Source: an uncultured Burkholderiaceae bacterium
Lineage (GTDB): Bacteria > Pseudomonadota > Gammaproteobacteria > Burkholderiales > Burkholderiaceae_C
Reading direction: 5' to 3'
DNA: 64,000 nucleotides
Assembly: GCA_964544605.1 (NCBI GenBank)
Contig: CAZJBX010000009.1
Span: 3-64,002, forward strand
This document shows, one piece after another, positions 39,752 through 46,676 of the stretch (its first letter is position 1; each line of letters opens with the position of its first letter). Made by a program: the position numbers and the translations under genes. The notes under the pieces were generated by a model. That model worked only from the letters and a program-made list of their open reading frames with translations. It made no database searches and had not been told where the DNA came from.

Positions 39752-40168
39752 ATGAACACCCCCAACCCAGCCCAATTGGCCCTAGGCCCGCGTCGCCTGA
39801 GTGTGATGAAGCACAGCTTCCAAGTGGCGGCCCTGCCCGCCTTTGTGCTGGGGGCGCTGACGGCGGCTGTGCCGCGTTTGTGGAGCTTGATTGGCTTGGA
39901 TGTGGGCGCTAACGGCGTGGTCGCCATGCTGTATTCCTGCGTGCTCATGGCCGTGGGGGTGTGGTCTTTCCTTGGCGCGCGCCGCCCTGAGGCCCACACT
40001 GGCTTGTGGCTGTTTATGGGGGTTTACAAGGGTTTGGCCTTTGTCGTGCTGAGCCTGCATTTTTGGGCCGCAGGCACGGGGCCGCTGGCGGGCTGGGCCA
40101 TTGCGGGCATTTATTTGTTTTTGAGCATCTATAGCCTGCTGCTCTACCCTTGGCGGCAGGCCCTGTAA
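39752..40168 (+). CDS. Small integral membrane protein (4 predicted TM helices)
   Basis: 138 aa and hydrophobic throughout. No motif recognised. Confidence 0.5.
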   Translation: MNTPNPAQLALGPRRLSVMKHSFQVAALPAFVLGALTAAVPRLWSLIGLDVGANGVVAMLYSCVLMAVGVWSFLGARRPEAHTGLWLFMGVYKGLAFVVLSLHFWAAGTGPLAGWAIAGIYLFLSIYSLLLYPWRQAL

Positions 40169-40205
40169 AGCGGCCACGGGCGAAGCAATCGGCGGGGGAT
40201 TTGCC

Positions 40206-41699
40206 ATGCACGATTTCGGCATCATTGGTAGCGGCTTTGGCGGCGCTGTGGCGGCTGATGTCCTCAGCCGAGCGGGGGCCGATGTGCTGCTGCTCGAACG
40301 CGGCCCTTGGCGGCGCAGCCTGCCGACGCAAAGCAGCTCACTCGACCCGGCCCTGCTGCGGCCCTTGCCGCAGGGGCGGCATTTTTTGAGCCATGTGCTG
40401 CACGCCCTGCACCACCCCAAGCTGCCCACGGGCGGCGTGCGCGGCCACCGCCACGGCCTGCTGGAAGTTTTTGCCGAGCCAGGCATTCGCGCCATTTGCA
40501 CCAGTGCCGTGGGCGGCGGCAGCCATGCGTATGGCGGCTTGCACGCCCTGCCCTTGCGTGCTGATTATTGGGATGGCCATGCCGAGGGCTTGAGCAGCGC
40601 GGGCATGGCGGCGCACTATCAGGCGCTGTTGCAGCAATGGGGCTCGGCCCCTGCGCCTGCGCCCGAGCACCCGCTGCGCCAAGGCCAACCCGTGCAAGCT
40701 TGGGAGCAGACGGGCGGCCCCTTTGTGCCCCTGCCTGCGGCGCAAGAGCCGCACTGGGGCTATTTGCTGGCGGGCAGTGGCAAGCCGCAGCCGCGCCAAG
40801 TGCATGGCCTGCTGCGGCAGGAGGCCGACTTCCAGCAAGAGGGCTTGTTTGGCTCGCCCACGGGCGGCAAAACCACTTTGGATGTCGCCTGCCTGCTGCC
40901 CGCCATGCAAGCGGCGGGGTTGCAAGTGCAGGCCGAGTGCGCCGTCAGCCACATCGCGCAGCGGCCTGGCGGCGGCTTTGTGCTGCACTACAGCCAAGGC
41001 GCTCAGTCCCAGCAAGTGGCCGTGCGCCAAGTGCTGGTGGCGGCGGGCACGCTGGGCACGGTGGCCTTGCTGCTGCGCAGCCAAGCGGCGGGTGGCCTGC
41101 CGCCCATGCCGGCCTTGGGCCAAGGCTGGGTCAGCAATGGCGATGCCATGGCCTACTTCCCCGTGCGCACGGCGGGCGCGGCACACAGCCGCCACGGCAT
41201 GTACCAGCGCATTTTTCGGCATGAGGCCGACGGTGAAAACGGGCCGATTTTTCTGCAAACGGGTTTGAGCGGCTTGGGTGCCGTGCCCATGCCAGCGGCC
41301 TTGCGGCGCTGGCTGGACCGCGACCTTTTTATTTCCGCCATGGGCATAGACGATGTGCCGGGCCGCCTGTGGCTGGATGCCCGCCAGCGCCTGCGGATGG
41401 ATTACGCGCGCCAAGCGCAGGCGGTGTTTCAGCGCGTGGATGCCCACTGGCGCAGCTTGGGCGCGCTATCGGGCCAGCGCCTGTATTGGGGCCAAGGCGT
41501 GGCCACAGTGCATCCTTTGGGTGGTGCTTGTGTGGGCGCAGATCCGCAGCGCAGCGTGGTCAATGGGCAGGGCCAAGCGCACCAAGTGCCCAGCCTTTTT
41601 GTGGTGGATGGCAGCGCCCTGCCTGCGGCCTTGGGCAGCCCGCCCTCGCTCAGTATTGCGGCCTGGGCGCGGCATGTGGCGCAGGGCTTGCGGGCCTAG
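40206..41699 (+). CDS. GMC-family FAD-dependent oxidoreductase (cholesterol-oxidase-like)
   Basis: N-terminal dinucleotide motif FGIIGSGFGGAVAA..LLLERG. C-terminal GMC motif HPLGGACVG...VVDGSALP. Confidence 0.75.
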   Translation: MHDFGIIGSGFGGAVAADVLSRAGADVLLLERGPWRRSLPTQSSSLDPALLRPLPQGRHFLSHVLHALHHPKLPTGGVRGHRHGLLEVFAEPGIRAICTSAVGGGSHAYGGLHALPLRADYWDGHAEGLSSAGMAAHYQALLQQWGSAPAPAPEHPLRQGQPVQAWEQTGGPFVPLPAAQEPHWGYLLAGSGKPQPRQVHGLLRQEADFQQEGLFGSPTGGKTTLDVACLLPAMQAAGLQVQAECAVSHIAQRPGGGFVLHYSQGAQSQQVAVRQVLVAAGTLGTVALLLRSQAAGGLPPMPALGQGWVSNGDAMAYFPVRTAGAAHSRHGMYQRIFRHEADGENGPIFLQTGLSGLGAVPMPAALRRWLDRDLFISAMGIDDVPGRLWLDARQRLRMDYARQAQAVFQRVDAHWRSLGALSGQRLYWGQGVATVHPLGGACVGADPQRSVVNGQGQAHQVPSLFVVDGSALPAALGSPPSLSIAAWARHVAQGLRA

Positions 41700-43055: not shown

Positions 43056-44087
43056 ATGACCTTTACCGCCCAACAAGCCCTGCAACGCGTCATTGAAAAC
43101 CGCGAAATCTTTCACGATGAAATGCTCAGCCTCATGCGGCAAATCATGCAGGGCCAAGTCAGCCCCACCCTGATTGCCGCCATCATCAGCGGCCTGCGCG
43201 TGCGCAAAGAAACCGTGGGCGAAATCGCCGCCGCCGCGCAAGTCATGCGTGAATTTGCCACCCAAGTCGAAGTGCCGCACAGCGCCCATTTGGTCGATAT
43301 TGTGGGCACAGGCGGCGATGGCGCAGAGAGCTTCAATGTCTCCACCACCAGCATGTTCGTGGCCGCCGCAGCGGGGGCCAAAGTCAGCAAACACGGCGGG
43401 CGCTCGGTCAGCAGCAAATGCGGCAGCGCCGATTTGGTCGAGCACCTTGGTGCCAGCTTGAACTTAAGCCCAGAGCAAATCGCCCAATGCGTGGCCGAGA
43501 CGGGCATCGGCTTTATGTTTGCGCCCAACCACCACCCCGCCATGCGGCATGTGGCCGCCGTGCGCAAAGAGCTGGGCGTGCGCAGCATCTTCAACATCCT
43601 CGGCCCGCTCACCAACCCTGCGGGCGCGCCCAACATCCTGCTGGGTGTCTTCCACCCTGATTTGGTCGGCATCTTGGTGCGCGTGCTGCAACGCCTCGGG
43701 GCCGAGCACGCCCTGGTGGTGTGGGGCCGCGACGGCCTCGATGAAATTAGCCTCGGCGCCGCTACCTATGTGGGCGAGCTCAAAGACGGCCAAGTGCGCG
43801 AATACGACATCCACCCTGAGGACTTTGGCATTGCCATGCACTCGGGCCGCAGCCTCAAAGTCGCCTGCGCTGAAGATTCGGCCCGCCTCATGCACAGCGT
43901 GCTGCACGGCGAGGCTGGCCCCGCCCGCGACATCGTGCTGCTCAACAGCGGCGCGGCGCTGTATGCCGCCAATATCGCCGCCAGCATTGCCGAGGGCATT
44001 GCGCTGGCTCGCCAAGCCATCGACAGCGGCGCGGCCCTGGCCAAGCAAAAAGAATTTGTGGCCGCCACACAAAAACTGGCGGCTTGA
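43056..44087 (+). CDS. trpD: Anthranilate phosphoribosyltransferase
   Basis: [35 protein letters not shown] motifs. 343 aa. Confidence 0.95.
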
Positions 44088-44174
44088 ATGCCATCGCCTG
44101 CCGCAAGCGACACCATTTGTCGCCTGTTTGCCTAGCATTGCCGTTGTCTCAATGCAATTAGAAAGGTGGCGCGT

Positions 44175-45143
44175 ATGGCGCAAGATCGTGTAGAAGTTTT
44201 ATTGGAGCGCGTGGCCGTGGCGCTGGAAGCCATTGCCACGCATTTGCAAGCGGCTGCGCCTGCTGGGGCCGTGGCCCAGCCCGTGGTGGCTGCCGCGCAA
44301 ACAGTGCTGCGACAGGTGGCGCAGGCAGAAGGGGCTGACAGCGCAGAAGCCGCTGCTGTCTCTTTGCCTGCCGTGCAAATGGGGCCAGGGCAGGTTTTGG
44401 GGCCGTTTTTGGCCCACCACGGCATCAGCATCAAGGTGCTGCCGCAGGCCGAGGAGGCCGACCGCGTGATTGACAGCTTGGCCCTGTATTTGGGCGACAA
44501 CTACGCCGCATTGGCCACGCTGTTGGGCAAAATGAAGCGCACCATGCAAAAGGGCGAGGGCTTTACCGAAAGTCTGAAAGACCGCCCCCAAAGCGATGTC
44601 ACCACGGTGTGTCAATTTGCCACCCGCTTGCATGAAATCGCATTTTTGGAGCAATATCAATACCAGCGCTCTCCTGCTTATTTGATTCGCGCCAAAACAT
44701 CGAGCCTGCCTATGGGGCAACGCTTTTTTGGCGGGCAATGGCTGGAGCGCTACATCTGGCAAAAGGTCAAGGCCGTGCACGCCCGCGCCTGTGAAGAATT
44801 TGGCCGTCCGCTGTCACTTGAGTGTTTGGTGAACCCGCAAATCGTGCTGCCCAATGGCGATGACTTTGAGCTGGACATCCTCGCCTCGATAGGCGGCAAC
44901 ATCTACTGGATTGAAGCCAAAACCGGCGACTACCAGCAGCATGTGAACAAATACGCCAAATTTGCCAAACAACTGGGGCTGGATCGCCAGCACTCTTGGA
45001 TGGTGCTCAGCGAAGCCAGCCCCGATCGCTGCGACACCCTGTCTGCCTTGTTTGGTATGCAGGTGAGCCATTTGCAGGGCTTTGAAGCCCGCCTATGGGC
45101 GCAATTGCAAGCTGACGAAGCGGCGGGTTTGCTCAATTTGTAA
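44175..45143 (+). CDS. Hypothetical protein with C-terminal Card1/DUF1887-like PD-(D/E)xK nuclease domain
   Basis: C-terminus FFGGQWLERYIWQKV ... NGDDFELDILASIGGNIYWIEAKTGDY gives E...D-x13-ExK, in the order I recall for the Card1/Can2 nuclease domain. Ala-rich N-terminal ~70 aa. SD AAAGGTGG upstream of ATG 44175 (GTG at 44166 possible). Confidence 0.6.
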   Translation: MAQDRVEVLLERVAVALEAIATHLQAAAPAGAVAQPVVAAAQTVLRQVAQAEGADSAEAAAVSLPAVQMGPGQVLGPFLAHHGISIKVLPQAEEADRVIDSLALYLGDNYAALATLLGKMKRTMQKGEGFTESLKDRPQSDVTTVCQFATRLHEIAFLEQYQYQRSPAYLIRAKTSSLPMGQRFFGGQWLERYIWQKVKAVHARACEEFGRPLSLECLVNPQIVLPNGDDFELDILASIGGNIYWIEAKTGDYQQHVNKYAKFAKQLGLDRQHSWMVLSEASPDRCDTLSALFGMQVSHLQGFEARLWAQLQADEAAGLLNL

Positions 45144-45161: not shown

Positions 45162-45190
45162 AAAAAAAAGGACGCTGCGGCGTCCTTTTT
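45162..45190. terminator. Bidirectional Rho-independent terminator between the nuclease-like gene and gatB
   Basis: AAAAAAAA-GGACGC-tgcg-GCGTCC-TTTTT. Confidence 0.8.
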
Positions 45191-45206
45191 CTTGTGCGGC
45201 CGTGGT

Positions 45207-46676
45207 TTATGCCATTTTGTCGCGCAGCATTTGCGTGAAGACGGCGGGGTTGCCCTGGCCTTTGCTGGCCTTCATGGCTTGGCCGACCATGGCGTTCAGG
45301 GCCTTGTCTTTGCCGCCTTTGAATTCCTCCACCATTTTTGGGTTGGCGGCGATGATGCCGTCGATGATTTTTTCGAGTGCGCCCGTGTCTTGAATTTGGC
45401 GCAGGCCTTTGGCGTCAATGATTTTTTCCACATCGGCCTGGCCACCTTCCCACAGCACATCCAGCACTTGTTTGCCGGCGTTGTTGCTGATGTCGCCTTT
45501 GGCGATGAGGGCAATCATTTGCCCCAGGGCTTCGGGCGGCACGGGGCAGGCGGTGATGTCGGCTTCAAGTGCATTCAGGCGTTTGGCGATGTCGCCCATG
45601 ACCCAGTTGGCCGCCAGTTTGCCTTGGCCTGAGGCTTGGGCCGCCGCTTCAAAGTAGGCGGCGTTGGCGGGGCTGGATGTGAGGGTGACGGCATCGTATT
45701 CGGGCAGCTCGTAGTCGGCCATCAGGCGCTCGACCAACTGGCGCGGCAGCTCAGGCATTTGCGCCTGCACTTCTTGCACCCAACTGCGCTCAATGATGAG
45801 GGGGGGCAGGTCGGGGCTGGGGAAGTAGCGGTAGTCGGCGGCGTCCTCTTTTTCGCGCATGGCGCGGGTTTCGCCCGTGTCGGGGTCAAACAAAACGGTC
45901 GCTTGTTTGAAGCTGAGGCCGTCCTCAATTTGCTCGATTTGCCAGCGCACCTCGTAGTCGATGGCCTGCTGCATGTGGCGGAAGCTGTTGAGGTTTTTGA
46001 TTTCACGGCGCGTGCCCAAGGGCTGACCAGGGCGGCGCACCGAGACATTGGCATCGCAGCGGAAGGAGCCTTCTTGCATATTGCCGTCGCAGATGCCAAT
46101 CCAGGTGACGATTTTGTGCAGCTCTTTGGCATAGGCCACGGCCTCGGCGCTGGAGCGCATATCGGGCTCGGTGACGATTTCCAGCAGCGGCATACCGGCG
46201 CGGTTGAGGTCGATGCCGCTCATGCCGTCAAAGTCTTCGTGCAGGCTTTTGCCCGCGTCTTCCTCAAGGTGGGCGCGCACCAAACGCACGGTTTTCTTCA
46301 CGCGCTCTTTGGCCTTGCCTTCTTCCACAAAAAAGGAGACTTTGCCGCCGATGACGACGGGGTGCTCAAACTGGCTGGTTTGAAAGCCGCTGGGCAGGTC
46401 AGGGTAGAAGTAGTGTTTGCGGTCAAAGATGCTGCGCTCGGCCACTTCAGAGCCAACGGCCAGGCCAAACTGAATGGCGCGCTCGACGGCTGCGCGGTTC
46501 ATCACGGGCAGGGTGCCGGGCAGGGCCAAATCGCCTGCGCTGGCTTGGCTGTTGGGCGCAGCGCCAAAGGCGGTGGGGCTGCGGCTGAAGATTTTGCTGT
46601 GGGTGGCCAGTTGGGCATGGGTTTCAAAGCCGATGACGACTTCATAGCCTTGAATGAGTTGGGGGCTGCTGCTCAT
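45207..46676 (-). CDS. gatB: Asp/Glu-tRNA amidotransferase subunit B
   Basis: [27 protein letters not shown]-terminal YqeY-like domain. gatCAB order. Confidence 0.95.

Follow-up and report, generated by a model that had tools for sequence, protein, structure and literature searches.

The window analysed here (the whole stretch of DNA under study) is 64,000 nucleotides long and comes from contig CAZJBX010000009.1 of an uncultured Burkholderiaceae bacterium (assembly GCA_964544605.1). On its forward strand, between trpD and gatB, it carries a gene at 44175..45143 whose 322-residue product (322 codons plus stop; the protein is called P0001 below) we read as a nuclease of the Can2 lineage. In this reading P0001 has kept the effector half of Can2, has lost the CARF sensor domain, carries a coiled-coil head in its place, acts independently of a signal, and plays an accessory role in genetic conflict. 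We assign this reading, taken as a whole, a probability of about 0.7.

Gene order in this part of the window is LptD, an APH-family kinase, a glucose-methanol-choline (GMC) oxidoreductase, DUF445, trpD, and the target gene, followed by gatB-gatA-gatC on the other strand and mreB. The trpD gene (43056-44087; Pfam Glycos_transf_3, E 2.6e-92) ends 87 bp upstream of the target gene. A Shine-Dalgarno-like AGGTGG, found by reading the sequence, lies at 44163..44168 (forward strand), 6 nt ahead of the ATG. There is an alternative GTG at 44166, three codons upstream of the ATG, which falls within this element. We take the ATG at 44175 as the start because the N termini of homologues align there and because the GTG overlaps the ribosome-binding site. 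Downstream, a bidirectional intrinsic terminator, recognized as an inverted repeat at 45162..45193, contains the hairpin A8-GGACGC-TGCG-GCGTCC-T5 at 45162-45190 (fold energy −30.9 kcal/mol, z = −4.3), and it is shared by the target gene and the convergent gatB (45207-46676, reverse strand). The initial annotation had described an open reading frame (ORF) with its own Shine-Dalgarno sequence, 87 bp behind trpD and closed by a bidirectional terminator; the ORF is real, and all of these elements were found. It had also described the gene as standing alone, and indeed no cyclase or cas gene is adjacent. No methylase that would point to restriction-modification occurs in the neighborhood of the gene within the window, and no convincing flanking direct repeats were found around it as insertion scars.

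The nuclease core

Direct sequence searches with P0001 gave nothing (phmmer against the PDB returned no match, and NCBIfam nothing meaningful), so profile and fold methods were needed. Fourteen PADLOC CARF_PDDEXK/Csx1 profiles match the protein, the best of which (PDLC01880, E 5e-9) aligns residues 78-259 with profile positions 142-307 of 364. An AlphaFold2 (AF2) monomer model, built from 36 homologues (predicted local distance difference test score, pLDDT, 88; predicted template modeling score, pTM, 0.78), has a helix over residues 2-26, disorder from about 27 to 70, and a single globular body over 75-322. When this model was compared with the PDB using Foldseek, the top matches, all with probability 1.00, were Cdn1 (9u49_A, E 8.3e-11), VC1899 (1xmx, E 2.7e-10), and Can2 (7bdv, E 1.3e-7). 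Several Can2 structures matched at 1e-7 to 6e-5, and significant matches were confined to the Can2 family. The alignments to Cdn1, VC1899, and Can2 span about 250-268 columns, well beyond the nuclease core of about 145 residues. Thus, the proposal that the C terminus is a Card1/Can2-type PD-(D/E)xK nuclease is upheld by Foldseek against the PDB and by the PADLOC CARF_PDDEXK profiles. A Foldseek search of viral structures (BFVD) returned only generic PD-(D/E)xK matches, none of them significant.

The PD-(D/E)xK core (restriction endonuclease, or REase, core), with its E-ExD-ExK motif, covers residues 176-322 (44700..45140, forward strand), an assignment supported by the profile-versus-PDB alignment to Cdn1 and VC1899 and by Foldseek. 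To map the catalytic residues, we read this alignment together with the Cdn1 paper (PMC12825302), and conservation was scored over 137 family representatives with pairwise identity of no more than 50%. The codon of E191, in the GxWLE helix, lies at 44745..44747 and corresponds to Cdn1 E274 (invariant in 136 of 137 representatives); the codons of E232-L-D234, the ExD element, lie at 44868..44876 and correspond to Cdn1 E308/D310 (137 of 137); and those of E247-A-K249, the ExK element, lie at 44913..44921 and correspond to Cdn1 E323/K325 (136 of 137), all on the forward strand. G187, W189, and W245 are likewise invariant. The middle residue of ExK is A in 62 representatives and C in 34, the latter form being the 'ECK' motif of Can2/Card1. 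The acidic and lysine residues singled out in the initial annotation (E191, E232, D234, E247, and K249) are therefore conserved across the family in 136-137 of 137 representatives. The motifs quoted there (FFGGQWLERYIWQKV, NGDDFELDILASIGGNIYWIEAKTGDY) are all present; the spacing between ELD and EAK, given as 13 residues, is actually 12. The P0001 nuclease is predicted to be catalytically competent, metal-dependent, and of the Can2/Card1/Cdn1 lineage.

Can2/Card1/Cdn1 and VC1899 (the CARF4-PD-(D/E)xK proteins; DUF1887/PF09002) are the best structural and profile matches of P0001, and they share with it the INS plus REase core and the E-ExD-E(A/C)K motif. By analogy with Can2/Card1, P0001 is probably a homodimer that cuts single-stranded RNA or DNA or nicks DNA.

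Beyond the Can2 family, Foldseek retrieved Bax1, MGME1, and EndoMS, and EndoMS is the closest DNA-bound structural relative of the Can2 nuclease domain (PMC7969007). This raises the question of whether P0001 is instead a structure- or lesion-specific DNA repair nuclease, acquired as an accessory function, that resembles EndoMS/NucS or cuts flaps or junctions; the placement of one homologue between gyrB and dcd/uvrD/dnaA would suit such a role. However, the Bax1, MGME1, and EndoMS matches are not significant (E ≥ 0.03), homologues show no consistent linkage to repair genes, and inspection by eye, with no motif search run, showed no motif for binding the clamp or SSB. We consider a repair function very unlikely.

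The head of the protein and the search for a signal

In Can2, an extra module of "four α-helices flanking two antiparallel β-strands" lies between the CARF domain and the REase core and is common to VC1899 (PMC7969007). It has been named the INS domain and contacts the substrate (PMC10783487). The corresponding region of P0001 is an INS-like domain over residues 73-175 (44391..44699, forward strand), an assignment supported by the start of the hhalign alignment, by the PDLC01880 coverage that begins at residue 78, and by the Foldseek span. For hhalign, the template was made from 11 full-length CARF4-PD-(D/E)xK proteins encoded by same-class genomes. The alignment has a probability of 96.2% (E 2.7e-9) and places P0001 residues 73-254 on template positions 152-321, with residues 73-175 on 152-240. 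It begins at a shared FLxAHG motif, directly past the CARF domain of the template. Because of this result, residues 73-322 can be regarded as a complete Can2-type effector half (INS plus REase).

The same alignment bears on the roughly 100 residues that the initial annotation had offered as a new sensor: they align to the INS domain already known from Can2/VC1899 (PMC10783487, PMC7969007), and that suggestion is not supported. A further guess, that this part is a winged helix-turn-helix, was neither confirmed nor excluded. When the region of residues 73-175 was modeled alone (pLDDT 86), the model gave weak, non-significant matches to SepF, ribosomal S8, and winged-helix proteins.

What precedes the INS-like domain is short. 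Residues 1-26 (44175..44252, forward strand) form an amphipathic heptad helix, which AF2 models over residues 2-26 with pLDDT 85-94 over residues 1-20. The family consensus here is LLERIAxALERIA, all six a/d positions are hydrophobic in one heptad register, and most of the 137 representatives have L/I/V at positions 10, 13, 17, and 20. With a net charge of −2, the helix of P0001 is acidic, unlike cationic membrane-binding helices. From these sequence features, residues 1-26 are predicted to be a coiled-coil dimerizer. They are followed by a disordered linker of variable length (residues 27-72; 44253..44390, forward strand), in which pLDDT is below 50 and the alignment is gappy and unconserved. 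This linker accounts for the Ala-rich N-terminal stretch noticed at the outset (16 of its 46 residues are Ala).

No CARF profile matches P0001, the cyclic-oligoadenylate (cOA)-binding motif NxTGGTK is not present, and no modified-base reader domain was detected in the protein. The claim that a CARF domain is lacking thus holds, given that residues 1-72 consist of helix and disorder and that hhalign begins only past the CARF domain of the template. Compared with Can2/Card1, P0001 has a heptad helix and a disordered linker where those proteins have CARF and its NxTGGTK motif. As the domain is replaced by nothing more elaborate, the change is better described as loss of a sensor than as gain of a new one.

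Nor was a likely source of signal found in the host, the genome of which is 2.27 Mb in size and 99.7% complete. Searches of this genome found no Cas10 palm domain, no SMODS cyclase, and no second Card1_endonuc nuclease. The full CARF4 profile had no match in it (weak evidence as a negative), and a CARF-only hidden Markov model run over its six-frame ORFs reached a best E of 0.078, with no CARF4-type CARF recovered. The sole CRISPR system of the genome is type II-C, with Cas9 (1122 aa) and Cas1. With no Cas10, SMODS, or CARF found and CRISPR limited to type II-C, control of P0001 by cyclic oligoadenylate is unlikely. Whereas Can2/Card1 are linked to CRISPR systems of type III, the P0001 gene lies outside a cas locus, in a host in which no type III system (Cas10) was found. 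The type II-C locus itself is split over two contig ends outside the window, C7 (about 74000-80900) and C10 (about 67600-69100), and its arrays have the 36-nt repeat GTTCCGGCCAGAGCACATATCCCAATCGCTTATAAT.

A switch of another kind might nevertheless operate. NucC, a PD-(D/E)xK effector of nucleotide-signaling immunity, senses cyclic triadenylate (cA3) without CARF or SAVED, and in lacking both it resembles P0001. By this analogy, a small molecule, or a partner protein encoded at another locus, could switch the enzyme allosterically by binding either to the INS/REase module or to the N-terminal helix. In support, a non-specific nuclease left free would have to be held in check; conservation of the N-terminal helix goes beyond the heptad pattern to the sequence itself, as would be expected of a specific interface; and REase loops of TbrCan2 contribute to the pocket for cyclic tetra-adenylate (cA4) (PMC10783487). 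However, NucC adjoins a CD-NTase or Cas10, neither of which was found in the P0001 host, and it is not among the Foldseek PDB matches listed for P0001. The host genome yielded no Cas10, SMODS cyclase, or CARF, no gene is conserved beside the family, and in relatives the helix gives way to generic long coiled coils. We think that a hidden switch of this type is improbable.

Relatives, transfer, and role

P0001 has 165 close homologues, and searching 1.8 billion representative proteins with a profile recovered 1015 family clusters at E ≤ 1e-3, 357 of them at E ≤ 1e-30. Most members are the same length as P0001, and some reach 400-570 residues. These long relatives have a transmembrane (TM) helix, basic residues, a Q/E/A-rich coiled coil of 60-250 residues, an acidic linker, and then the same nuclease module. 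Their coiled coils give weak matches to crescentin, intermediate-filament (IF), and TRIM_CC models, and the positive charges on the C-terminal side of the TM helix lead us to read the C-terminal part as cytoplasmic. Because the TM helix and coiled coil of the long forms occur at the position of its N-terminal helix, P0001 may be viewed as having the smallest form of a coiled-coil head that varies across the family. Our search of the literature (full text) found no description of CARF-less, coiled-coil relatives of Can2, and the family proteins are currently annotated as "hypothetical", being below the Pfam PF09002 threshold. The P0001 family is a new architecture of a known kind of nuclease, with its biological role (defense, RNA turnover, or repair) unproven.

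There is further variety within the family. The sub-clade with P0223 and P0256 has a conserved C-terminal extension (about 135 residues aligned between the two, 37% identity), a domain with no homologue in the host genome of P0001. Among the relatives P0223, P0256, P0260, and P0231, one has N-terminal tetratricopeptide repeats (TPR), and one is a 1321-aa protein with four stretches matching the family profile.

The gene was not found in three genomes of the same genus, nor in 33 of the same family, and among 24 same-order genomes of other families a single one has a relative (36-37% identity). A pattern scan that took a single genome from each of 185,579 species located 64 loci, in hosts that include Meiothermus, Gloeomargaritales, hot-spring Synechococcus, Roseiflexaceae, Gemmataceae, Achromatium, Thiomargarita, and Bryobacteraceae. 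In a maximum-likelihood tree, P0001 falls in a 20-row clade (support 99/94) in which at least nine phyla are mixed on short internal branches, which argues for transfer between phyla. The GC content at third codon positions (GC3) of the target gene is 0.675, versus 0.72-0.78 in its neighbors. The gene is a horizontally acquired one-gene insert.

The end branch of P0001 is long (0.49), while those of its clade mates (L031-L048) are mostly 0.05-0.25, with a few at 0.3-0.6. This points to faster evolution, or to amelioration following transfer, in a protein that has kept its active site intact. The long branch and the missing CARF domain could also be taken as marks of a decaying, functionless remnant of a Can2 gene that has lost its 5′ half. 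We regard this as scarcely credible, considering that the architecture is common to hundreds of full-length homologues from many phyla, that the active site is invariant and the N-terminal helix conserved, and that the reading frame is intact and has its own Shine-Dalgarno sequence and terminator.

The surroundings of homologues vary between genomes. When every ORF of 60 aa or more lying no farther than 5 kb from any of 60 homologue loci was clustered, shared neighbors were found only inside Roseiflexaceae, where they reflect vertical synteny, and tallies of Pfam and PADLOC matches found no recurrent neighbor, no family occurring in more than four of 142 neighboring proteins. The neighborhood comparison proposed in the initial annotation therefore describes a stand-alone gene with no conserved neighbor outside Roseiflexaceae. 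An N6_N4 DNA-methylase domain occurs in two of the 142 neighbors and a few more match type II/III methyltransferase profiles; one Cas1 (among about 50 homologue loci) and one dGTPase were also seen. In some hosts there are hints of mobile or toxin-antitoxin-rich surroundings: the homologue at L005 (Gloeomargaritales) lies amid IS605/IS1/DDE transposase fragments and a PIN gene, and that at L024 is followed by a FitA-like ribbon-helix-helix (RHH) gene and DinB.

RNase Y has a membrane anchor, a coiled coil, and a catalytic domain. The long relatives share this layout, with a TM helix at the N terminus followed by a coiled coil and a nuclease module that appears to be cytoplasmic, so a cellular endonuclease for RNA turnover or processing, cutting single-stranded RNA in normal metabolism, is the main rival to a role in conflict. 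It gains from the findings that Cdn1 is a ribonuclease and that Can2 cleaves single-stranded RNA (PMC12825302, PMC7969007, PMC10783487), from the syntenic and apparently vertical inheritance in Roseiflexaceae, and from the housekeeping genes that make up most homologue neighborhoods. The likeness to RNase Y is limited to layout and to the long members, as the catalytic folds are unrelated (HD/KH versus PD-(D/E)xK) and P0001 itself has no TM segment. Moreover, the family is very rare in the species-wide scan, the gene is missing from every close relative of the host examined and belongs to a clade formed by cross-phylum transfer, and a housekeeping RNase would not be expected to be dispensable in sister species. 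On these grounds we consider a core RNA-turnover role unlikely.

The reading that we prefer, a signal-independent nuclease of the Can2 lineage with a coiled-coil head, starts from what is established for Can2/Card1, in which the CARF dimer holds two nuclease halves together and binding of cA4 shifts them to the active arrangement (PMC7969007, PMC10783487, PMC12825302). In P0001, a short parallel coiled coil at the N terminus would do the holding in place of the CARF dimer, tethering two nuclease modules through the flexible linker of about 45 residues; in relatives, the holding element would be a long stalk, in many cases membrane-anchored. Such an enzyme would be independent of a signal and would cut single-stranded RNA or DNA, or nick DNA, with control exerted through expression, localization, or access to substrate and not through a second messenger. 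The cell might be protected by autoinhibition by the helix, by low expression, or by substrate selectivity. Being rare, patchy, and moved between phyla, the protein does not look like a core housekeeping enzyme, and we infer that its most likely role is that of an accessory conflict-type nuclease (in innate defense or entry exclusion).

A number of results weigh against this reading. The match of Pfam PF09002 (Card1_endonuc) to residues 182-277 of P0001 scores 15.6 bits (E 0.012), short of the gathering cut-off of 26.4 bits; the scores of relatives P0256 and P0223 are 25.7 and 23.2 bits, and by its sequence P0001 is a remote homologue beyond the present boundary of the PF09002 family. The isolated model of the middle domain had no PDB match with E below 0.2 and did not retrieve the Can2 INS domains, which leaves profile alignment and position as the basis of the INS assignment. 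The N-terminal helix could, instead of pairing two subunits, pack against its own nuclease and inhibit it, or it could bind a partner. A non-specific nuclease that needs no signal should be toxic, and thus some control must exist. A tblastn search of phage and plasmid collections with P0001 found no match, inheritance looks vertical in the Roseiflexaceae and cyanobacterial clades, as would fit a cellular role, and the few DNA methylases, the Cas1, and the dGTPase near homologues are weak evidence, not enough for a defense island.

To our knowledge, Can2/Card1 nucleases are known only as effectors activated by the cyclic-oligoadenylate alarm of type III CRISPR systems. That a family so large, conserved, and mobile has a coiled coil in the sensor's place, and in some members a membrane anchor as well, while keeping the complete effector module implies that this module has been reused outside CRISPR signaling. 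A precedent for a stand-alone DUF1887-annotated nuclease without a CARF sensor may be TieA (HP0986) of Helicobacter pylori, likened to P0001 by annotation only; the part of the TieA paper used here reports a non-sequence-specific DNase and, in contrast to P0001, mentions no coiled-coil head (PMC5100599).

The conflict role can be pushed further, into a tentative scenario that we consider doubtful. The family of about 1000 clusters would be an unrecognized class of innate immune nucleases that need no signal and that descend from the effector half of the type III CRISPR Can2/Card1 proteins, with the coiled coil pairing the nuclease modules. Anchored forms would be stationed on the inside of the membrane, at the place where single-stranded nucleic acid comes in by injection, conjugation, or transformation, and a single gene would provide protection of the entry-exclusion type. 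If the family does defend cells, it would be a new one-gene immune system and also a natural experiment on the activation of Can2 nucleases without ligand; if it is a cellular RNase, RNA decay in cyanobacteria, Chloroflexota, and hot-spring bacteria would gain a new participant.

The trpD junction

The initial annotation had placed the gene where trpC would be expected. This is correct insofar as trpC directly follows trpD in two other genera of the family. However, the trpD-trpC link is already broken in two congeners without the target gene: next after trpD, one has a convergent carboxylesterase and the other a different convergent gene. The host trpC is intact elsewhere, on contig C26 (C26:2182-3066, locus L022), between an MFS transporter gene and Ham1/RdgB. 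The idea that the target gene displaced trpC was rejected on both counts, since the break predates the arrival of the gene. The target gene sits at a rearrangement-prone junction.

Nearby, at 39752-41699 of the window, the segment that separates the APH kinase gene from DUF445 holds a hydrophobic ORF of 138 aa and the GMC oxidoreductase gene. The GC content of the GMC gene is 68.7%, compared with 60-63% in its neighbors, and neither it nor the 138-aa ORF is present at this place in the congeners G001 and G002. This segment is a second lineage-specific insert near the target gene.

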